From assembly GCA_026066175.1 (NCBI GenBank), contig GCA_026066175.1_4721.2: a stretch of DNA of 64,000 nucleotides; one strand, written 5' to 3'. This DNA comes from a phage. The position numbers and the translations under genes were made by a program. This document shows, piece after piece, positions 13,059 through 42,108 of this stretch (positions are counted from its first letter, which is position 1; each line of letters begins with the position of its first letter). The notes under the pieces were generated by a model that was not told the DNA's origin, did no database searches, and worked only from the letters and a program-made list of their open reading frames with translations.

Positions 13059-15470
13059 TTAAGCATCCTCGGTAGGTAATGGTTTCACAATCAAACGATT
13101 GAGCGGATTCGATAGGCGCATACTGATAGGCTTATACGCAGCATGATTCGTTTCGCTCAATACAGCGGATCGGAAGCGACCTTCAACACGTTTATAGATT
13201 GGGTTTATCCAAAGACCCTGAAGACCCGGTTGACGGAAACGTTGTTCGATAGGTTTAATCGGTTTCACGGTCAAACCACGTACCGCTTCTGACGGTATAC
13301 GTTCGCTGATGTCGCGAGGTGCTCGACCTGGGAATGGAGCCAACCAGAGACCATCCAGCGGGTTCTTACGGAAACGCAACGAGATAGGATCGCTGATAAC
13401 CTGCGCCCAGTACTGCGTGCTGAACCGTACCGTCTGGGTATTCTCGTATCCGCTGCAATCGCACCAGGTGGGTTTCGGCGGGGCTTCTAAGCTCTCAACC
13501 GCGGATTCACGCCAGTTCGTCATTGGGTTGTTATCATGGACGAATTTGATAACTTCCGTAGCTTGGTTATCCGTATCGTGAACGTTTGCTTGTGCCCAGT
13601 CCTCCCACAGTTCTTCACTGCCGCTTACCAAACTTGAACCGAGCCGAACGGCAATTTTGTTCAGTGGTTTGATCGGATCGCTGTTGATTGTCTGGATAAA
13701 ATGGATGGTGTAACTGCTCAGTGTTTTAAGCAGTTGTAGCATCCCGTATTGAATATCCTTAAGACTGGTAACGTCTTCCAAGTCTTGACCGGTGGCCTTC
13801 GTGAAGATATCGAGAGCCAGAATCCCCGCTTCTTCTTGACTGATTGCGTCAAGCTCCCAATCCATCGCTAAGAACCATTCCTTGTAAAGCTGTCCAATAC
13901 CGAAATCAACCCCAACGTCCATGTAGAAGTTTTCAACGATAGCCTCAGCCATACCTCGAGCCTGGTAATGCTCCTGAAGCTGATACATGAACTGATGACG
14001 ACGCCATCCCTGATAGATTTCTGTAACGATGTTAAGAAATTCCTCAGTACTGACAATAGGACGTAATGTCACCTGTTTATCTAAACACCACCAGATCAGT
14101 TTGTCAGGAATGATAACCGGATCGGTAATGCTACGAAGATGCTCGAATGTCGGTAACGTTAAAACGCGGACGTGGTTAGCATGGATCTTAGGTACTTCAA
14201 TGAGCGTCATACCCATCGAATAGTTCAGCAAATACAAGAATAGCTTGTAGGCATCTTTCATCGACATGGTCATGGTATCACCCGTCACCGGGTTGGTGGT
14301 GGTTAACCGTGACTGATACATGCCGATGGAACTCAGATGGATCCATTCGTTGAGCAAGAAATCGTATTTCGGGTATAACTCACTGTCGGTAAGATCTTCC
14401 GCTTCACTTTCCAATACCTTGGTTGTTAAGGTATTATTGTCATGCATCGACATCTTCTCTATTGTGCGGTTAAGCTCGGTATAATACTCCGCTTCGTTAT
14501 CCCGCGCTAGAGGGAACTGTTGTTGCATTACGGTGGTGACCTTACGACGTACCGTCCCGTTACCAACGATCTCTTGAAGGTTAAGCGGTTTACGTTCCAT
14601 GTAAACAGTGGGTTTTAACGTCTGAGGTATTTCGGAAGCGTCTTGTTTGATCGAGAACGCACCGATTGGAATACCACGATCGGTGAGTACCTTCTGAATA
14701 AGCTTATCGTAGTTTTCCGTTCTACCCATGTTCCTTTCGACGTAAGCGATGTTACGATAAAACCAGAGCATTTGGGATTCTGTCATGTATCGCTTGAAAC
14801 GATCAAGGCCTTGATGGCTTGCCAGATAGCTCCAGATATGGAAGCTATGGGCATAATGGGTATGACAGTTTTCCCAACGAATACCTTTTATCATCTCAGG
14901 TATTTGTGTGAATAGAATAGCATATAACGCAGGCCAATGAAGCATATCGACGCTTTCATACGCGGGATGTTCCCAGCGCCGGAAGTAGTCGTCGATTTCT
15001 TGCTGTAATCGTGGAATAAGGTTGGCTTCGCGTGATTCAACCTCGCGGGTATCGTACCAGAGAATCTCGTGATTGCGTGCAGCAAGGGCTTTCTCGATAT
15101 CGATGGGGTTAAGGATACCCAGGATTAACATACGTTGTTCTGGGTACCGTGCAATTAGACGATTGAAATAATCTCCGCCGTACGCGTATTCCCTTGCGGT
15201 CATGCGGTGCCGTAGCATGTTTTCCTTGGTGAACTCGATCTCTTCGAGCGTATCCAGGGAATTGACGGTCATCATTGTCTGACAAGGATGATACTCGCCA
15301 GCGAGATTCATGTAGTATAACCACGTGCGTGGGTCGTCCCCGACGGCCATCTGGTAGACTTCGGAAACCTTGAGGTTTAACCGTTCTGCCGTGATGTCGC
15401 TTTTAATAATCAGGGTGTCCGTTAGACGCTGCACGCTTTCCGAATAAAGCTGATAGTCAGTGTTGGACAC
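13059..15470 (-). CDS. large hypothetical protein with C-terminal RFR/GLW short repeats (start uncertain)
   Basis: Long ORF; the track start at 15539 is a TTG with no SD, whereas the in-frame GTG at 15470 is preceded by ggagga (6-nt spacer); the first in-frame ATG is at 15350. C-terminus has repeats SLRFRKNPLDGLWLAP / EQRFRQPGLQGLWINP / EGRFRSAVL. Confidence 0.55.
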   Translation of the reverse strand: MSNTDYQLYSESVQRLTDTLIIKSDITAERLNLKVSEVYQMAVGDDPRTWLYYMNLAGEYHPCQTMMTVNSLDTLEEIEFTKENMLRHRMTAREYAYGGDYFNRLIARYPEQRMLILGILNPIDIEKALAARNHEILWYDTREVESREANLIPRLQQEIDDYFRRWEHPAYESVDMLHWPALYAILFTQIPEMIKGIRWENCHTHYAHSFHIWSYLASHQGLDRFKRYMTESQMLWFYRNIAYVERNMGRTENYDKLIQKVLTDRGIPIGAFSIKQDASEIPQTLKPTVYMERKPLNLQEIVGNGTVRRKVTTVMQQQFPLARDNEAEYYTELNRTIEKMSMHDNNTLTTKVLESEAEDLTDSELYPKYDFLLNEWIHLSSIGMYQSRLTTTNPVTGDTMTMSMKDAYKLFLYLLNYSMGMTLIEVPKIHANHVRVLTLPTFEHLRSITDPVIIPDKLIWWCLDKQVTLRPIVSTEEFLNIVTEIYQGWRRHQFMYQLQEHYQARGMAEAIVENFYMDVGVDFGIGQLYKEWFLAMDWELDAISQEEAGILALDIFTKATGQDLEDVTSLKDIQYGMLQLLKTLSSYTIHFIQTINSDPIKPLNKIAVRLGSSLVSGSEELWEDWAQANVHDTDNQATEVIKFVHDNNPMTNWRESAVESLEAPPKPTWCDCSGYENTQTVRFSTQYWAQVISDPISLRFRKNPLDGLWLAPFPGRAPRDISERIPSEAVRGLTVKPIKPIEQRFRQPGLQGLWINPIYKRVEGRFRSAVLSETNHAAYKPISMRLSNPLNRLIVKPLPTEDA

Positions 15471-15497
15471 GATCGGTCCTCCAAGGAGCCAGTGTAA

Positions 15498-18416
15498 ATG
15501 AACGATATAAATAAAGGGCGCGTCGCCCTCGAACGTCAAATGAGCAATAATGACGTTGCGAAGGCACTCATGAACAAATTTGTCGCTCCTGCTCCGCAGT
15601 CACGTCTTTATAACACACGTGAAGCGGAAGGAGCGAGCGGTCGTTTCGGGTTAGTTGTTCCCGACCAGATGACGATGAACACGGTGACGCGTGCGACCGC
15701 AACAAACGTCGAGGATAATAAAAACATCCTCGAGTTGTTCCCTGAACTTAAACGCGTGATGCAGATCTATGTTGCCGCGTTGACGAACCCTAACGATCTT
15801 AAGACGGTCGAGATGTTCATCGACAGCGAAGATTTCCCCGGCAGAGTCGCAGAAATCGTTCAGCCGATGATCGATACCATCGACACGCATTTTAAGAATA
15901 TCTATAAAATAAAGACGCTTATCCCTCGTATCATCGAAGATGTCTTCTTTATCAAGGGCAGCTATAACTTCGTTGTTCTGCCTGAAAGCACGCTCGATCG
16001 TGCTATTAACGGCAACGGCCAACTGAAACTCGAAGAATACGGATTTAAAAACAATCATTTCGCCAGCTGGGGGCTGCTGGGGAATGACAGCCGTATACGC
16101 AGTCAACATCAGTTACCGACAACGGTTTCGATGGAAGATTATTTTTCAGGCGTTAACGAAACCATCCCGTACGATCCGGTTGTCCGTATCGATAGCATCA
16201 AGTTTACCAACACGATGCTCCGTGATAAAGACGGTAAATTCATTGAAGCGAAGGTCGATATTCCGGATATGGTTACGGTTGTTGATAACCCAGACATCCT
16301 TCGCATGCCGATTTTACACCAACGTCGTGCGTCAACAGCCGTGCAACGTGCATTACGTGCAAACACCTTAGGCGGTAACGGCCTGGTGACGTTATCAGGC
16401 GATCCGACGCAAACCGCGAATCGACGTGAGCTGACACAAGAGCAAGTTAATGAGATCTGGAATAAACTAAACATCCAACGTCATACCAAGGTATCGCCTG
16501 TGTACGCACTAGCAACCCCGGATACCCTTGACCGTCAAAGCGTTGGTCATCCTGGCGTAATGCATGTACCACCTGAGTCATTAGAACCGGTTCATGCGCC
16601 TGGCGATCCAGAGAACCATATCGGTTATCTCGTCCAGCTGGATGAATTCGGTTACCCAGTACGTTTGGTTGAAGATGCTGCGTATTACAAACAGCTGGAA
16701 GGTCGACTGTCGAAGATCACGGCGGATATTGCCGGTACATCAAGCAACGGAATGGCGAGTGAGATGATCGGGGCAGCGAAGAACATGGTTCAAGGTACGT
16801 CGTGTAACCAAGTCGATATGTCAGCGTTTGTCTCGTCGTACGAATCACTGATGCAACGTTATATCGTTGAACGTATCGTTAACGGTTACCTCGGCAGTGC
16901 GGTAGAAATCGGTGCAACGTCGTCGTTCTATCTGTCGATGCTTGCCCGCAGTCTTGCTCACAAGCAAACCCGTGTTTTGTTTATTCCTCGTGAGATGGTG
17001 ACATACATCGCCTACGAATACAACAAATACGGGATTGGACGTTCCTTGCTTGAAAGTACGAAGATGATCTCATCGCAACGCGCGATGCTCATGGTTCAGG
17101 AACTGATGGCGAAAATCAAAAGTTCGTTGAACTATACGACGCTGAGCGTGATGCTCGAAGACACCGATAGAAACCCGGTTGATACCGTTGAGCAGGCATT
17201 GCACAGTTTTGCTCGTGTTTATCAATCTGGTTTCCCGTTGGGTGAAACCAACCCAATGGATATCATCAATGCATACGAACGAAGCTCGATTCGATTGAAG
17301 GTTGAAGGGAACAACCCACGCTTCCCGAAACTGAACACCGACGTTAGCGTTGAACAACGTAACTACCAATCCCCGGATGATGAGCTGATGGATCGTTACC
17401 GTCGTGATCATTTCATGGGTCTGGGTGTTTCTCCAGAGATCGTTGATACGTCCTACCAATCTGAATTCGCGGCGTCGGTGATTACGGCTAACGCGATGCA
17501 AGAGAAACAGTTCACGGTTTGTCGTGAGGTCGTCACGAATGGCTTAACTGATCACATCAAGAAGTATACGGCTTATAGTCCTGTGCTTCTGACGTCGTTA
17601 CGCAATACCGTTCGCGCGAATATGTCAAAGCTCTCTCAAGCGCAGCTGCAACAGCTCTTTGGTAGCGACTTCGAAAACGGTGTTATTCGTAACGTGAACG
17701 CGTATCAGGAGATTGATGATCGATCGGTGACAATGGATCTGGATTACACCAAACCGGAAGTCCAGGAAGTGATTGCTGACGCTTATGTCTCCATGTTCTT
17801 AAACAGCTTGCAGGTACGTTTACCGGATAGCAACGCGCGTCGCCTTGAAGATCAGGTACGTGAATATAATCAGTACAAGGAAGCGATTACAGCACAACTT
17901 GATGATTATTTAACACCGGATTATGTCATGGGTCTGGGTGGGGTCGATGAAACAACCCTGCAGATGATTCGAGCGTGCATCATTGGTACGGCGATGAGGA
18001 CATGGGCGAAAGAAAACAACTTCAATCAGGAGCTGGCCGATCTCTTTAGTCTCGACGATAAGAAGAATGCCGTCCAGGATTGGAAACGTGCATCCATGGA
18101 GCATATTGAAATCATGGGTAAATGCATGGGTGATTTCGCACTCTATATCCAAAACCTGACGAAGCAAATCGAAGAGAAGATGGGCGACCAAGCACAAGAC
18201 GGTAGCGTTTCATCTGACGGCTCATGGTCATCGGATTCCGGTTCGGATAGCGGTTCTTCCGATGATTTCGGTGGTGGTGATGACTTTGGTGGCGACGACG
18301 ATTTCGGAATGGAAGAAACCGAAGAATCCACCGAGGAAACCACTACGGAAGAAACAACCGATGAAACTGGTGATAATGCCGCATCAGAAGACGATACCGC
18401 AGGTGATATTGTCTAA
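15498..18416 (+). CDS. large hypothetical virion protein with acidic DDFGG-repeat C-terminal tail (portal-like size; function unverified)
   Basis: 972-aa ORF; SD aaggag 9 nt before ATG; C-terminus SSDDFGGGDDFGGDDDFGMEETEESTEETTTEETTDE... is low-complexity and acidic. Confidence 0.6.
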   Translation: MNDINKGRVALERQMSNNDVAKALMNKFVAPAPQSRLYNTREAEGASGRFGLVVPDQMTMNTVTRATATNVEDNKNILELFPELKRVMQIYVAALTNPNDLKTVEMFIDSEDFPGRVAEIVQPMIDTIDTHFKNIYKIKTLIPRIIEDVFFIKGSYNFVVLPESTLDRAINGNGQLKLEEYGFKNNHFASWGLLGNDSRIRSQHQLPTTVSMEDYFSGVNETIPYDPVVRIDSIKFTNTMLRDKDGKFIEAKVDIPDMVTVVDNPDILRMPILHQRRASTAVQRALRANTLGGNGLVTLSGDPTQTANRRELTQEQVNEIWNKLNIQRHTKVSPVYALATPDTLDRQSVGHPGVMHVPPESLEPVHAPGDPENHIGYLVQLDEFGYPVRLVEDAAYYKQLEGRLSKITADIAGTSSNGMASEMIGAAKNMVQGTSCNQVDMSAFVSSYESLMQRYIVERIVNGYLGSAVEIGATSSFYLSMLARSLAHKQTRVLFIPREMVTYIAYEYNKYGIGRSLLESTKMISSQRAMLMVQELMAKIKSSLNYTTLSVMLEDTDRNPVDTVEQALHSFARVYQSGFPLGETNPMDIINAYERSSIRLKVEGNNPRFPKLNTDVSVEQRNYQSPDDELMDRYRRDHFMGLGVSPEIVDTSYQSEFAASVITANAMQEKQFTVCREVVTNGLTDHIKKYTAYSPVLLTSLRNTVRANMSKLSQAQLQQLFGSDFENGVIRNVNAYQEIDDRSVTMDLDYTKPEVQEVIADAYVSMFLNSLQVRLPDSNARRLEDQVREYNQYKEAITAQLDDYLTPDYVMGLGGVDETTLQMIRACIIGTAMRTWAKENNFNQELADLFSLDDKKNAVQDWKRASMEHIEIMGKCMGDFALYIQNLTKQIEEKMGDQAQDGSVSSDGSWSSDSGSDSGSSDDFGGGDDFGGDDDFGMEETEESTEETTTEETTDETGDNAASEDDTAGDIV

Positions 18417-18828: not shown

Positions 18829-21420
18829 TTACTGTTCGTCGCGTTCCAACAGGTACTCGGAAGCCGTAACACCGTTTACAGTACGGATGGCTTTCAGACG
18901 TGTATCATCGTTCAGAATCACGGTAACAGACTGCAGACCTTTTACCTTGGTTTCGAAGGTTTTGAATACCTGGTCTAACATACGTGCGATGCTTGGGTTG
19001 GTGGCAGCTGATGCGTGGGTATACCCACTCTGATTAAGTTTCAGAATCTTCGCGTTGGTTGGTACACGAACGATAACATGCGGACGCATAGCGAACACGC
19101 TGTGGTTGAACCAGTACGCATCCGGGCTGTCTTCATCGGTCACGAGGTCTGGATGGGTCTGCATATCTTCAGCTGCAGCATCCGCCAAACGACGTTCGAT
19201 TTCGTCAGCATCCAGAGAACCATCTTTCTCCAGCTCAGCACGATACTCATCCATGATTGCCGCGCGACGCTCTTGATTTGCGACCATCTTATCATGAGCC
19301 GCATTCAGGTAATCGTTCATGCTGTAAAGCTCTGCCATGGAAAGACGGATGTTCCACTGACCAACACCGTCACGATTGCAGTAGAGGCATTTCAACATAT
19401 TGCCCCAGGTGTGATAGCAACGGGTGAACTCGTCTTCGATGAACTTCTGATCCATTTTAAGTTCGTTGATCAGCCAGCTATACAGCTCACCGACATCATC
19501 TACGAAGCTTGCAATGGTGGTTTCAGAGAAGTTCTTAGGTACAACACGCTTGATCCATTTGTTGATGTCTTTGGTCATGCTGTCGTTCAGGAAATGCCAG
19601 ATACGCAGAGGGATAACCTCTCTGTGTTGTTGCATGACCTGACGATAGGCTGACACACCTTCAATATGACCTTTATCAATAGACAGGGCATCCAGGAATT
19701 CCTGGATAGCATCAAGCTGTTTATCGGTGTAGGTTCCCAGGTAGGAATTGACTGTGGTCAGGAACGCCAAAGCATCGTTCTGGTTGACGTCGGTATTGGT
19801 CTGCTGGATGATCGCAACCGTCGCTTTGGTTTCAGCGTCTTCGATGCTGGATGCCGGAACCATGTCAGTGACAGTGAACAGTTTCATCTCACGCTGTTCG
19901 CCAACAACAATCGGTTCACGTCTAACCGGTTTGTTCAGGCTAACACGCACAACTTCTGCTTGCGCGATACGATCCCATTCTGCCATTTCCAGCTCCGCCA
20001 TACGACGTGCGGTTGGATCTGTTTCAAGTTGAATGTATTCCATTTCTTCCACCGTAAGTGAGGTAATATCAACAATGGTTTCATGAAGAATTCCGTTTTC
20101 GTCAATGCGAGCGCGACGAGCGAATTGCCTGAAGTCATACGCGGTTGGCCAACGGCTATCAGGCGCGTAGTCTTTGGCCTTCAGACGCATTTGCATGAAT
20201 TCTTCATGGTGAACAACACGACCGTATTGCTTCGCATCTTCGGTCGCATCAAGAGGGTCAACCGTTTTGGTTACCGTCGCAGGACGTACGCTACGTACCG
20301 GCTCAGGTTTTACCTTCACGGTTTCAGGTTGAGTAGGTGCTTTCTGCTCAGCCTTAACATGCCATTTCGGTTCTTCGTACTGCTCAGCGAATTGCTCAGC
20401 TACCGCAAAGATATCGTTGATGCCGCCAATATCTCCATCCGGATGGGTTGAGTAAATACGCGTTTGTGGTGCTTCCTGACGCGTTGCTGCTGGAGCAGGT
20501 TTATCGTCAACTGGGTCATCATCACCAACATCGTACAAACGGTTGAACGCACACTCCTTCGAATCCATATACGAAGGTGCTTGCTGCTGAACAACCGTTG
20601 GTCGAGGTTGTGTGCCGTATCCTGGCATTGTCGGAGCCATACCACGCATAACCGCTGGATTAGGTTGGTACTGCGGCTGAGGATAAGCTCCACCGTACGT
20701 GTTATACACAGGTTGTTGAGGTTGACCGTATCCGGCGTTGACCATCGCGTTTGCTTGCGGTCCGCGATAGGTCATTCCCAACTGCGTTACCTGCGCTTTT
20801 AACGCACGTGTCTTCTGCGCGATTTGATTCAGAGTCCCACCTTGATTCAGTTGTGTATACTTATTCGCTGCTTCCGGGTTAATGCGCGTTAATTCCTTTG
20901 CACGATAATACTCAGGATATTGATTGGCCTCAAAGAGCCACTGTACAAGATGCATAAGTATCGTTGTACGTACCGCGGTGTCGATAATCTGATCGACTGA
21001 TGCATTCTGAGGCGCTGGGTTGATATAAGAGAATACGTTCCAGCAGCAGTCCTCAACAAGTGACTCCATCGCCTCGTTGTTATTGGCGTAACGTGCCACG
21101 AACTGTGTTTGAATATCGTCTTGCTGAGCATGCTCTTTCAGGACATTAAAGATAGCCTGACGGATTTTGACGATATTTCCTTCGTTGGTGATGAACTGGT
21201 AGTTCTGCTGATATGCTGGATTAGGTTGGTATTGCGGTGGTTGTTGGTAACCGCCCCCGTATTGTGGATAAGCCGGTTGCTGGGGTTGGTACGGAGGTTG
21301 TTGATATTGCGGTTGCTGGTACTGTTGTTGACGCACCTGGTCAGCTGCAAATCGAACCGTGCTTGCGTACGGGTTCTCGCTATAGCCCATTTGTTGGTAT
21401 ATGTTGTTACCGTTATACAT
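18829..21420 (-). CDS. hypothetical protein with two Q/Y/P-rich low-complexity (prion-like) segments
   Basis: 863-aa ORF; residues ~28-75 (QQYQQPQYQQPPYQPQQPAYPQYGGGYQQPPQYQPNPAYQQNYQ) and ~225-270 (GYGQPQQPVYNTYGGAYPQPQYQPNP...); SD aaaagga upstream. Confidence 0.7.
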   Translation of the reverse strand: MYNGNNIYQQMGYSENPYASTVRFAADQVRQQQYQQPQYQQPPYQPQQPAYPQYGGGYQQPPQYQPNPAYQQNYQFITNEGNIVKIRQAIFNVLKEHAQQDDIQTQFVARYANNNEAMESLVEDCCWNVFSYINPAPQNASVDQIIDTAVRTTILMHLVQWLFEANQYPEYYRAKELTRINPEAANKYTQLNQGGTLNQIAQKTRALKAQVTQLGMTYRGPQANAMVNAGYGQPQQPVYNTYGGAYPQPQYQPNPAVMRGMAPTMPGYGTQPRPTVVQQQAPSYMDSKECAFNRLYDVGDDDPVDDKPAPAATRQEAPQTRIYSTHPDGDIGGINDIFAVAEQFAEQYEEPKWHVKAEQKAPTQPETVKVKPEPVRSVRPATVTKTVDPLDATEDAKQYGRVVHHEEFMQMRLKAKDYAPDSRWPTAYDFRQFARRARIDENGILHETIVDITSLTVEEMEYIQLETDPTARRMAELEMAEWDRIAQAEVVRVSLNKPVRREPIVVGEQREMKLFTVTDMVPASSIEDAETKATVAIIQQTNTDVNQNDALAFLTTVNSYLGTYTDKQLDAIQEFLDALSIDKGHIEGVSAYRQVMQQHREVIPLRIWHFLNDSMTKDINKWIKRVVPKNFSETTIASFVDDVGELYSWLINELKMDQKFIEDEFTRCYHTWGNMLKCLYCNRDGVGQWNIRLSMAELYSMNDYLNAAHDKMVANQERRAAIMDEYRAELEKDGSLDADEIERRLADAAAEDMQTHPDLVTDEDSPDAYWFNHSVFAMRPHVIVRVPTNAKILKLNQSGYTHASAATNPSIARMLDQVFKTFETKVKGLQSVTVILNDDTRLKAIRTVNGVTASEYLLERDEQ

Positions 21421-38724: not shown

Positions 38725-41700
38725 TTACTTGTAGGCACCGCAATGGGCTTTGATGAGGAAAAGCACCGCTTGCATCGGTTTATTGAACTGTTGCCATAAC
38801 GTTAATGCCGGATGGAACAGCCAATCTTCCAGGCCGAGAACAATACCGTAGTTAACGACATTATTAACATCGTTCTCAACGTTGAGTTCGCTATCCAGGA
38901 ATTTATCGATTGAACGCAGGGTCTGCATGGCGTTGTCAGCAATAAGCCAAGCTTCATGCGCTTCACGAGCCGCACGCAGCACTGCCTCCAGTTCGCTGAT
39001 AGTAGCTACCGGTAATTCCTCACTGGTGAGGTCGTCAGAAACCGTAAACTGGCGATTGATACCGGTGTAGATCCACTGCATCAGTTTCGCTGCTTCCTCG
39101 TTCGGGTTGTTACGCGTTGTCGCATAGGTCGCGCTCATCTTCACGATATGCGTTTCACCAAGATACGCTTTGGACCCAACGCCTTTACGATCGCTGTCTT
39201 TCCACGGTTGTACGGTAGCGACCATGAGCTTATCCCATTTCTGAATAGGAATACGCTTCAGACCAACAACCGATCCGGCCGATGTTTCGGACTGGTTGCT
39301 CTTCCGCACTTCGCTGAGCTCGCGATCGATAGCAACGATTAATTCACGCGTCATGTTACCAAGCATTTTGATTTCACCCAACGCAGCGATGAGCTTCTTC
39401 ACATCGGTAATAGGTTCACCACCGATGGTAAGATGACGGATGAAACGTTTCAGAATAATCCGTTCTGCTGCTGGGTTACCACGACGCGCTTTAGCCAACG
39501 CTTGCTGTGTTTCGGCGAACAGCTTATCCCATGGAGCCGTAGCGGCGGTATAGTAACGGTGGTTGGTTTCAATCCAGTTACCGATACGGTTGACCGCACT
39601 CTTAACGGTATCCATGAACCCTTCCATCGCAATTTCGGTGGCTTCGACGTTACCCTGGAAGTTATCAGGACCGATCTCACGCGCCGCCACCAGAATACCT
39701 TCCACCGCACTCACCGCATGCCGACCGATAGCCAGATTTCGCTGCGCTTCTTCAGCACGCTCAACGAATTCTACAACCGCAGGATCGTCAACGATTTCCG
39801 CCTCAGCAACAACACGAGTACCAGCATCGCCTTCCAGTGTCTCGATGGTGACAACCGGATCGTTTTCACCAGCAACATCCTGGTACTCTTCCTGTTTGAG
39901 ATCGCCGTTATCAGCCGCTGCGACAGCGGTGAGTATACGGACGGTAACATCACCGAGTTCTTTCGCAGCGAATCCGTAGACGGTACATGCTGTTGTCGCA
40001 AAGTTCATCAGTGTGCGCGTGCGTTTAACGATGTAACCAACATCGTAATCGTTGCCGCTCTTATCGATGTCGCGGATTAACCGTTCAGCTGTCTCCTGAA
40101 GCTGTGTAGCTGCTTTCAGAAGGTCTTCGTTAAACAGTTTCGTTGACGCATCGATCAGCATATCAACACTAACGTTAGACGGTACGGCATCATCCTGCTG
40201 TTTCATGGCGCTAAGTTCGTCACGGAACTTACGAATACCGTCTAAAGCGGCGTCGGCGCTATGTCCGAACGCGGCCACGCCAGACATTGTTGTTGCTGTC
40301 AGCATGTCCGTATCAGCGTTTGGACTTTCGCCTTCTTTAAGATCCTTCAGCTGGTCGAAGAACTTACGGGATGCTTCAGCGATACGTTTGCTGTCTTTGA
40401 CTGCGTTTACGATTTTATCAACCGATTTAGCATCGTTCGCAAGCAGCGTATCGAGTTTGTTCCATTCGACGTTGACTTTCTTTTCATCCGAAGTATTACT
40501 CGGCGGAGGAAGCAGTTTCATCACCGGTGCTGTGCGTTGTTCTTTGGTCAGCTTGTTGGCCTTCCCTTCGATTTTTTTCTTATTAACACCAAAGAGATTT
40601 TTCAAACGCGCCACGAGGGCTTTTAAGAACTTCGCGACCGCTTCGTAAACCGATTTCAGAATCTGTTTAAAGCGACCCGGCTGCTTTTCCCCGTCTTCCA
40701 GATTAAGATCGCTGTTCAGCGCGACATCAAGCTGTTTGTACGATTCCATGATGTATTCGTCTTTGATTTCAGGACGAATCTCGAAGCTTTCCATCGGACC
40801 TTCAGCCGGACGGAATTCCATTTTCAGTTCGCCTTGCAGAGTAGGGTCGACAATGGCGATCGCTTCACCCTGACCATCAGCGTTAAAGCGTTCAGCGTAA
40901 CGAGTACGGCGAACAATAACACTCTTATCCCCATCAAGACGACGTACCACCATGGTGCCAGGAATGTATGGTTGTTCTGTTTCAATGACGGTTACATCTG
41001 CCTCACCTTCGCCGAGAATAACCGATGCACGCTGTTCAACAACAGGAACATCTAATACGCCACGTGCTTCCAGCTCTTGATGAATTTCGAACGACTCTTG
41101 TTTCAGATCTTCATCTTCTTCGTTTTCGTCTTCATCACCGTCACCTTTGGTGTCTTCATTACCCTCGGTGGTTTTGGTGTCGGTAGCATCAGCGTCGGCG
41201 TCTGTGTTGGTAGGTTCTTCGGACGCGGGTTCGGTGGTGCTATCCTCGGTGGACGTTTCGTCGGCGTTATCGACGTCAACATCACCTTGCAGCTCCGTTT
41301 CTTGAGCAACGGCGTCGGCTTTCTGCTCACCAGTATTGCCGTCATTAGCGTCGACAACAGGTTGTTCGTCAGCGACGGTATCTTCAACCTTTTCTACTTT
41401 CTCCACAACACGTTTAATCACGGTGACTTTGATGGGTTCTTCCGTCGTTTTGGTTTCTGGCGTCGCCTCGGCTACCTCAGCTGCTGTTTCAGCAACAGGT
41501 TCTGCTTTTTCCGGTTCGACGACATTGCCTTTAACACCTTCGGTGGTTTCTGCAGGTTGCGTCGCCTGTTCGATTTGTGCCGGATTGGTTGGATCGATGG
41601 CGTTAGCCGCATCCTGAATCTTGTTCTTCAGGTTGTCACGGTCAGCGTTAACGGTCGGATCATTGGTCACTTTCGGTGCCGGTGTTTCGGTCGGTGCGTT

Positions 41701-42108
41701 TGCTGGATATGGGTTCTTCGGCTCTTCACCAGGTGCGGTCGGTACGGCGATCAGCACGAACGGCTGCACGTCGTTACCGTCTTCCATGGTAACGCCACCG
41801 TTGCTCGGTGTGAAACGAATTCGTAAACTACCATCGATAGGACGGGTCACAATAACAGCACGTACGACATCCTCGCCGTTCTCATCCGTGCTACGAATTA
41901 CGCGAACGGCATCATCAACAGTAGCCCCTTCCTCGAGCGTATCTGATTCGATCGTCGCTTCGATGCTGTCTGGCCGTGCCGCTGTAGGTAATGCGATCAC
42001 CTGCTCTTCTTTATCAGTAGAAAGCGTTGCTTTGACTTCGATCGGTGTATCGCCGCTTTCCAGGTTAAGATGCGACTTACGCATCAAATCAGCTAACGAT
42101 TTTTTCAT
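38725..42108 (-). CDS. large virion protein with long acidic low-complexity region and internal duplication
   Basis: 1127-aa ORF with SD gagga. Residues ~130-330 are T/E/D/A/P-rich (...TEDSTTEPASEEPTNTDADADATDTKTTEGNEDTKGDGDEDENEEDED...). Two related segments (VVRAVIVTRPIDGSLRIRFTPSNGG and MVVRRLDGDKSVIVRRTRYAERFNADG) flank the acidic region. Confidence 0.65.
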   Translation of the reverse strand: MKKSLADLMRKSHLNLESGDTPIEVKATLSTDKEEQVIALPTAARPDSIEATIESDTLEEGATVDDAVRVIRSTDENGEDVVRAVIVTRPIDGSLRIRFTPSNGGVTMEDGNDVQPFVLIAVPTAPGEEPKNPYPANAPTETPAPKVTNDPTVNADRDNLKNKIQDAANAIDPTNPAQIEQATQPAETTEGVKGNVVEPEKAEPVAETAAEVAEATPETKTTEEPIKVTVIKRVVEKVEKVEDTVADEQPVVDANDGNTGEQKADAVAQETELQGDVDVDNADETSTEDSTTEPASEEPTNTDADADATDTKTTEGNEDTKGDGDEDENEEDEDLKQESFEIHQELEARGVLDVPVVEQRASVILGEGEADVTVIETEQPYIPGTMVVRRLDGDKSVIVRRTRYAERFNADGQGEAIAIVDPTLQGELKMEFRPAEGPMESFEIRPEIKDEYIMESYKQLDVALNSDLNLEDGEKQPGRFKQILKSVYEAVAKFLKALVARLKNLFGVNKKKIEGKANKLTKEQRTAPVMKLLPPPSNTSDEKKVNVEWNKLDTLLANDAKSVDKIVNAVKDSKRIAEASRKFFDQLKDLKEGESPNADTDMLTATTMSGVAAFGHSADAALDGIRKFRDELSAMKQQDDAVPSNVSVDMLIDASTKLFNEDLLKAATQLQETAERLIRDIDKSGNDYDVGYIVKRTRTLMNFATTACTVYGFAAKELGDVTVRILTAVAAADNGDLKQEEYQDVAGENDPVVTIETLEGDAGTRVVAEAEIVDDPAVVEFVERAEEAQRNLAIGRHAVSAVEGILVAAREIGPDNFQGNVEATEIAMEGFMDTVKSAVNRIGNWIETNHRYYTAATAPWDKLFAETQQALAKARRGNPAAERIILKRFIRHLTIGGEPITDVKKLIAALGEIKMLGNMTRELIVAIDRELSEVRKSNQSETSAGSVVGLKRIPIQKWDKLMVATVQPWKDSDRKGVGSKAYLGETHIVKMSATYATTRNNPNEEAAKLMQWIYTGINRQFTVSDDLTSEELPVATISELEAVLRAAREAHEAWLIADNAMQTLRSIDKFLDSELNVENDVNNVVNYGIVLGLEDWLFHPALTLWQQFNKPMQAVLFLIKAHCGAYK

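Follow-up and report, generated by a model that had tools for sequence, protein, structure and literature searches.

Why should a large phage protein end in a long, strongly acidic tail studded with Asp-Asp-Phe-Gly repeats? The question is raised by an ATG-started open reading frame (ORF) at positions 15498..18416 (+) of a 64,000-nucleotide stretch of phage DNA (contig GCA_026066175.1_4721.2 of GenBank assembly GCA_026066175.1; this whole stretch is the window). According to the ORF listing of the window, it encodes 972 amino acids. Homology searches show that the product is the portal of a Goslar-like, nucleus-forming jumbo phage of the Chimalliviridae. What is new is the tail. As judged from comparisons across the family, the G-G-D-D-F-G tail module of phiKZ- and Goslar-type portals is not junk: the same architecture and motif recur family-wide, and therefore the tail stands far beyond chance.

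The portal identity as such is already established and adds nothing new. In a phmmer search against the PDB, the product matched chain 11ed_J, 'Portal Protein gp36' of phage Goslar, over residues 1–972 (E=0, ~97% identity), and 36za_o8 (E=0), a chain of 917 amino acids that corresponds to query residues 5–921. The phiKZ portal gp129 (9xpe_M, 'PHIKZ129') was found at E=5.6e-76. Amino acid identity to Goslar HOV27_gp036 is 96.9%, and the window shares 89% DNA identity with Escherichia phage Goslar over 20 kb. The product also matched PHROG 3004 (head and packaging; E=1.6e-162); scans of the 972 residues against Pfam and NCBIfam found no family model. An earlier note, made from the letters alone, had described a 972-residue protein at 15498..18416 (+) ending in EEKMGDQAQDGSVSSDGSWSSDSGSDSGSSDDFGGGDDFGGDDDFGMEETEESTEETTTEETTDETGDNAASEDDTAGDIV, in exact agreement with the ORF. 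It had also guessed at a portal, a guess borne out by the full-length match to gp36, the homology to phiKZ gp129 and the PHROG assignment. The gene (15498..18416, +; stop codon at 18414–18416) is an orthologue of Goslar gp36 and phiKZ gp129, with which it shares the wing, stem, clip and crown layout, a divergent gp128-type neighbour and a DDFGGGDDFG tail. Yet the phage is a separate isolate from Goslar. The third repeat reads GDDDFG here and DTDFD there, and three in-frame indels set the two distal tails apart.

Although homologues of this portal can be detected in numbers above 1200 and the PDB holds three entries for it, the family is without a Pfam-A or NCBIfam model, and many GenBank records label its members 'hypothetical' or 'virion structural protein'. 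For a 97%-identical portal in cluster P0001 (404 member sequences), located on a contig of 29.5 kb, the NCBI title is 'hypothetical protein EJO52_23690 [Salmonella enterica subsp. enterica serovar Enteritidis]'. Goslar-like DNA in Salmonella-labelled assemblies could be a hint about host range, or could represent contaminating or carried phage.

Counted from K894, after which no further Lys or Arg occurs, the tail comprises 79 amino acids with a net charge of −26 and is dominated by a few residues (D 21.5%, G 16.5%, S 16.5%, E 12.7%, T 11.4%). The 893-residue portal body carries a net charge of −22. From residue 900 onwards, a Ser/Gly/Asp-rich linker, QDGSVSSDGSWSSDSGSDSGSS (residues 900–921; 18195..18260, +), still lies within the region modelled in the solved structures. 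It is followed by three acidic-aromatic motifs, DDFGGG-DDFGG-DDDFG (residues 922–936; 18261..18305, +), and by a distal polyanionic end rich in Thr, Glu and Asp (residues 937–972; 18306..18413, +). Each of these segments is built on short tandem repeats at the DNA level: 12 bp x2.2 at 18231–18256 in the linker, 18 bp x2.7 at 18260–18307 in the DDFG block, and 12 bp x3.9 at 18318–18367 in the distal end. Among the long ORFs of the window, the portal tail holds the most acidic stretch of 40 amino acids (−19), and the pattern [DEG][DE][FW]G[GDSN] occurs in the window in this tail only. These results show that the portal extends beyond its crown as a compositionally disordered, polyanionic C-terminus. 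Within the window, acidity second only to that of the portal tail is found in a 40-residue stretch of −17 near residue 295 of a 1127-residue ORF at 38725..42108 (−), whose product has a net charge of −78.

Is such a tail a peculiarity of this phage? An exhaustive HMMER search returned 1219 homologues at E<=1e-3, whereas an earlier word-indexed search had found only five proteins. The tail statistics cover 148 sequences, namely the query and those 147 among the top 150 representatives (one for each cluster at 50% identity) that reach at least 850 amino acids. Over their last 100 residues, these proteins have a median net charge of −22, and 137 of the 148 are at −15 or lower, against −2.5 per 100 residues in the body. 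With a median of 82 amino acids (interquartile range 70–95), the low-hydrophobicity tail contains 25 Asp plus Glu versus 3 Lys plus Arg. Its first half is rich in Gly, Ser, Asp and Phe, and its second half in Glu (0.20), Thr (0.10) and Pro (0.09).

The motif itself is strongly enriched. DDFG occurs 27 times in the tails, versus 1.6±1.3 times after shuffling whole tails and 4.9±2.1 times after local shuffling over 12 amino acids (z=10.5). The reversed motif GFDD occurs 8 times (z=1.3). The more permissive pattern G[DE][DE][FLMW]G was found 35 times versus 4.9 in local shuffles (z=13), and D[FLMW]G 126 times, in 81 proteins, versus 45.7 in local shuffles. Around Phe, Gly prevails at −4 (0.32), −3 (0.30) and +1 (0.41), and Asp at −2 (0.32), −1 (0.39) and +3 (0.31), against a background of 0.14 for Gly and 0.16 for Asp; Glu is depleted at −1 and −2, where Asp is preferred. 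The first motif lies at a median relative position of 0.37, about one third into the tail, and the terminal residues of the protein (for instance GDIV or GGVV) vary between relatives.

Architecture and motif persist in representatives that are only 24–35% identical to the query body. Among named relatives, the tail of the phiKZ-like phage OMKO1 contains GGYGDFG...DDLG, that of 201phi2-1 gp214 a repeated GGGFGD, and that of the SPN3US-like phage SPLA3 GGFGGGFD...GGGGDDDLDLDLD. The RAY tail is acidic (net −24 over the last 110 amino acids) with a DDFN element, the PCH45 tail is acidic (net −23) and does not match the motif pattern, and EL gp103 has the acidic part without the motif. Trp variants of the form GDxWG occur in homologues as well. 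Hence, our results show a two-part build across the family, with a proximal Gly/Ser-rich linker that carries one to four Gly-Gly-Asp-Asp-Phe/Leu/Met/Trp-Gly motifs and a distal, fast-evolving acidic stretch rich in Glu, Thr and Pro. In the literature that could be searched in full text, no phage or portal paper with the DDFG-type motif was found.

Comparison with Goslar indicates how selection is distributed over the tail. The rate of non-synonymous substitution (dN) is 0.016 in the portal body, 0.09 in the Ser-rich linker and 0.06 in the DDFG block, where 7 synonymous and 2 non-synonymous differences were counted. In the distal end it reaches 0.21, at 69% amino acid identity and with in-frame indels of 3, 12 and 6 nucleotides. 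Over the whole tail, the ratio of non-synonymous to synonymous rates (dN/dS) is ~0.06. By these counts, the motif block is under purifying selection and the distal end drifts in sequence while its composition is kept. This graded constraint, together with the family statistics, therefore marks the tail as a conserved module consisting of a selected linear motif and a distal part that is selected mainly for composition.

Where, then, does the tail reside? In the Goslar virion, gp36 is a dodecameric portal with C12 symmetry, built from a wing (residues 5–519 and 643–777), a stem/clip (520–642) and a crown (778–923), with a channel 60–74 Å wide (10.64898/2026.04.21.720040). The crown tops the ring, packed across three adjacent protomers (10.64898/2026.04.21.720040). 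Goslar residue numbers equal those of the window up to residue ~930, and the limits from the Goslar cryo-electron microscopy place the crown, the last ordered part on the capsid-interior side, at 17829..18266 (+). The solved models stop at residue ~921–923, which is the start of the DDFG repeats, and leave the remaining ~50 residues unmodelled; the Goslar preprint and the phiKZ atlas do not comment on these residues. The AlphaFold2 monomer model, which is poor (mean predicted local distance difference test 42, predicted template modelling score 0.27) and hence weak evidence, has its last helix at 862–899 and gives coil at its lowest confidence from residue ~900.

The Goslar portal is present in virions (YP_009820721.1, 'Neck (Portal)', 12 copies, 20 peptides; Table S4 of the Goslar preprint). 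The coverage of 22.8% in the mass spectrometry supplement is uninformative on whether the tail is retained, and trypsin-based detection is blind to the tail because there is no Lys or Arg after K894.

No domain of a portal lies further inside than the crown (T4 portal papers), and therefore the twelve tails should surround the inner opening of the DNA channel, within the procapsid or capsid. From the known architecture of portals it follows that each portal of this phage would present some 36 DDFG motifs and roughly 300 negative charges there. The portal of phiKZ, gp129, is essential by transposon sequencing (Tn-seq; phiKZ Tn-seq preprint). The phiKZ atlas, the T4 portal papers, a T4 review and the phiKZ Tn-seq preprint contain nothing on the function of an acidic portal tail.

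Acidic portal tails are not confined to this family. SPP1 gp6 (gene 6, L010 835-2346) has a tail that ends in ...LLDDEGGDDDLEEDDPNAG..., also given as ...DDEGGDDDLEEDD... or ...LLDDEGGDDDLEEDD..., with a net charge of −17 over the last 60 amino acids and a GGDDDL element. T4 gp20 ends in ...FQDPDQEQEDF (sequences of PDB 3ja7 and 6uzc), of which the last 8 residues are disordered (T4 portal papers). Like the phiKZ-type tails, both are disordered acidic extensions past the crown with an embedded or terminal hydrophobic residue. They differ in showing no detectable sequence relation, in their length (8–40 amino acids versus a median of 82) and in lacking tandem DDFG. The similarity may reflect convergence. 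In the portals of T7, lambda, HK97 and phi29, an acidic tail was looked for and none was seen.

Acidic-aromatic tails that recruit other proteins are well known from the single-stranded DNA-binding protein (SSB) tip (DDDIPF), the ribosomal stalk proteins P1/P2 (...DDDMGFGLFD) and the Phe-ending tails of T7 gp2.5 and gp4. In these systems, a multimeric hub displays aromatics on flexible acidic tails, and partners with basic/hydrophobic pockets are thereby recruited multivalently and at low affinity. The portal tail resembles them in being a strongly acidic, disordered extension of a dodecamer with an aromatic or hydrophobic residue conserved in acidic context among the 148 sequences. However, in those systems the motif stands at the very C-terminus and the free carboxylate and the last aromatic are essential, whereas the portal motifs occupy residues 922–936 of 972, that is, 36–50 residues from the end. 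The setting differs as well, with cytoplasm or DNA there and the capsid interior here. Because its motif is not at the free C-terminus, the portal tail was not filed with the SSB and stalk tips.

The earlier note had likened the tail to such recruitment tips. The likeness holds for the disorder, the acidity and the conserved, directional Asp-Asp-Phe-Gly, and fails for the distance of the motif from the C-terminus and for its location inside the capsid. A biophysical resemblance is also seen to the 'acid-exposed hydrophobic' motifs of acidic activation domains, such as VP16 (...DDFDLDML...). These are likewise disordered and Asp-rich with Phe, Leu or Met, and many portal family members contain stretches such as DDFDFDFE, GDFDMGDDDMD and DDMGMDDMGFDMD. 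The biological context is different, and the resemblance is biophysical only, with no homology implied. Among other repeat classes that we considered, RTX/beta-roll Ca2+ repeats (GGxGxDxUx) were rejected: the period is 6 instead of 9, GGGDDFGGD has Asp at the fourth-position Gly, and there are about three copies. Repeats like those of Phe-Gly (FG) nucleoporins were rejected too, with three FG dipeptides only and strongly acidic spacers (34% D+E). DDFG also appears in trypanosome P-protein tails (PMC2704175).

Because DDFG is directional and conserved, a short linear binding motif fits better than mere low complexity. Because the tails lie inside the capsid, any partner must be an assembly-stage or internal protein rather than a cytoplasmic factor acting on finished capsids. 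We tentatively favour the reading that the tail is a multivalent docking element which positions basic or DNA-binding internal head proteins, as putative partners, at the portal vertex. The Asp-flanked aromatics would form a multivalent, low-affinity docking motif, in which the surrounding acidic residues would hold the hydrophobic residue exposed to solvent. During procapsid building, the motif could capture basic or DNA-binding internal head proteins, with scaffold or inner-body proteins, ejection proteins and the prohead protease as candidates. The distal acidic stretch might act as a flexible, DNA-repelling or DNA-mimicking spacer, which is pushed aside while the head fills with DNA. A precedent for portal-borne targeting comes from SPP1, where binding to the portal protein gp6 directs gp7 into the interior of the procapsid (PMC6316719).

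Several points weigh against a docking role. That the gp6 tail is involved in binding gp7 is our own inference. A strict motif match was found in only 86 of the 148 representatives, leaving ~40% without one. Just ahead of the repeats, the chain is ordered and lies against adjacent subunits, so that the motif could instead serve contacts within the ring. Whether the tails survive in mature virions is not visible to trypsin digestion. Finally, the charge is more widespread in the family than the motif, EL having the acidic part only, and this favours a purely electrostatic role.

Such a role would make the tails a brush or gate without any partner, which keeps DNA off the crown, centres the last-packaged end, senses headful pressure or plugs the channel of the empty procapsid. 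We regard this as rather unlikely. Negative charge is the most universal feature of the family (−15 or lower in 137/148) and is present even without the motif in EL gp103. Moreover, the distal end holds its composition while its sequence drifts and repeats are gained and lost, the Goslar channel is wide at 60–74 Å, and the unrelated portals T4 gp20 and SPP1 gp6 are acidic-tailed too. Yet charge leaves unexplained the directional G-G-D-D-F-G, the preference for Asp over Glu and the retention of a hydrophobic residue in a tail otherwise poor in them, and the portals of T7, lambda, HK97 and phi29 function without acidic tails. An alternative explanation, which we consider unlikely, is that the motifs serve the ring itself, as a strap between subunits or an assembly aid that binds pockets on neighbouring crowns or, transiently, assembly intermediates and thereby sets ring stoichiometry or stability or keeps the portal soluble before closure. 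The modelled region does span the Ser-rich linker up to 921–923, directly before the first DDFG. The GDxWG variants of homologues have a counterpart here in DGSW at 906–909, inside the modelled region. However, W909 is lost even in the 67%-identical relative P0002, and the DDFG repeats are not resolved in the C12-averaged 3.8 Å map, an absence that speaks against their stable, symmetric attachment to the ring.

The end of the virion models at 921–923 would also be explained if the tail were a propeptide, cut off after procapsid assembly by a prohead protease of the phiKZ gp175 or SPN3US gp245 type, which cleaves after S/A/G-x-Glu. The SPN3US and phiKZ portals are substrates of this protease (PMC10052503), and three such sites (GME939, STE946 and ASE964) lie in the last 36 residues. 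Nevertheless, sites of this kind are expected by composition in a stretch rich in Glu, Ser and Thr, and only STE is kept in Goslar. In addition, all known SPN3US substrates, except for the protease itself, lose N-terminal propeptides, the portal being cut at ATE-161 and AQE-254 (PMC10052503), whereas Goslar appears to retain even the N-terminus of its portal. Removal of the tail is improbable in our view. A further idea is that the tails thread outward through the wide channel (60–74 Å) of the empty procapsid to external machinery such as terminase or, at the phage-nucleus shell, ChmB, as a DNA-like bait. A portal–ChmB interaction is real, and its binding region is unmapped. But fifty residues are short compared with the height of a portal of ~1000 amino acids, external partners classically attach to a portal through its clip domain (T4), and T4 and SPP1 have similar acidic tails without a phage nucleus; we consider threading very improbable. 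Finally, the 12- and 18-bp tandem repeats and the in-frame indels between close relatives might suggest a neutral low-complexity tail generated by slippage of short DNA repeats. The persistence of architecture and motif at 24–35% body identity, the tail-wide dN/dS of ~0.06 and the 7 synonymous versus 2 non-synonymous differences in the motif block make this scarcely credible.

A related observation concerns the other end of the protein (15498..15700). Goslar-type portals appear to keep their N-terminus, as residue 5 is the first in the Goslar model and virions yielded a peptide beginning at residue 66 (ATATNIEDNK). SPN3US gp81, with its cuts at ATE-161 and AQE-254, behaves differently, and so reportedly does phiKZ. 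A long N-terminal portal propeptide in the style of SPN3US was rejected for Goslar-type portals on the same grounds.

The tail matters, as nucleus-forming jumbo phages must load dozens of internal proteins into their heads and later eject them through the portal. A conserved, multivalent motif placed right where the channel opens inward gives mutational work on the recruitment and ordering of this cargo a concrete handle. In practical terms, neither symmetric averaging nor mass spectrometry after trypsin digestion can reveal such a tail. In a bolder version, which we hold to be distinctly unlikely, the tails would be a DNA-mimicking, Phe-Gly-studded acidic leash or gate at the inner mouth of the exceptionally wide (60–74 Å) chimallivirus channel. 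They would tether DNA-binding ejection proteins (such as the virion RNA polymerase or inner-body proteins) close to the exit so that these leave first at infection, and might also seal the empty procapsid channel during transport to the phage nucleus. If true, this would be a previously unrecognised, family-wide device for ordering cargo, built from a short linear motif.

The genes around the portal are shared with relatives as well. The divergent upstream neighbour is an ORF of 826 amino acids at 13059..15539 (−), a homologue of phiKZ gp128 and Goslar gp35 (PHROG 3222). The head-to-head pairing of a gp128-like gene with the portal is kept in Goslar, OMKO1, 201phi2-1, SPLA3, EL, RAY and PCH45. 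For phiKZ gp128, a low copy number in the virion and a lack of transposon insertions have been reported. As called here, this ORF starts with TTG at 15539 and overlaps the portal start by 42 nucleotides; the Goslar annotation implies a start ~23 codons downstream (~15470) for the gp35 homologue.

On the other side of the portal, 18829..21420 (−) encodes an 863-residue homologue of Goslar gp38 ('hypothetical'). This product, for which no notable Pfam or PHROG assignment was found, has a low-complexity N-terminus rich in Gln, Pro and Tyr (…QQYQQPQYQQPPYQPQQPAYPQYGGGYQQPPQYQPNPAYQQNYQ…) and a second Q/P/Y-rich stretch at about residues 230–260.

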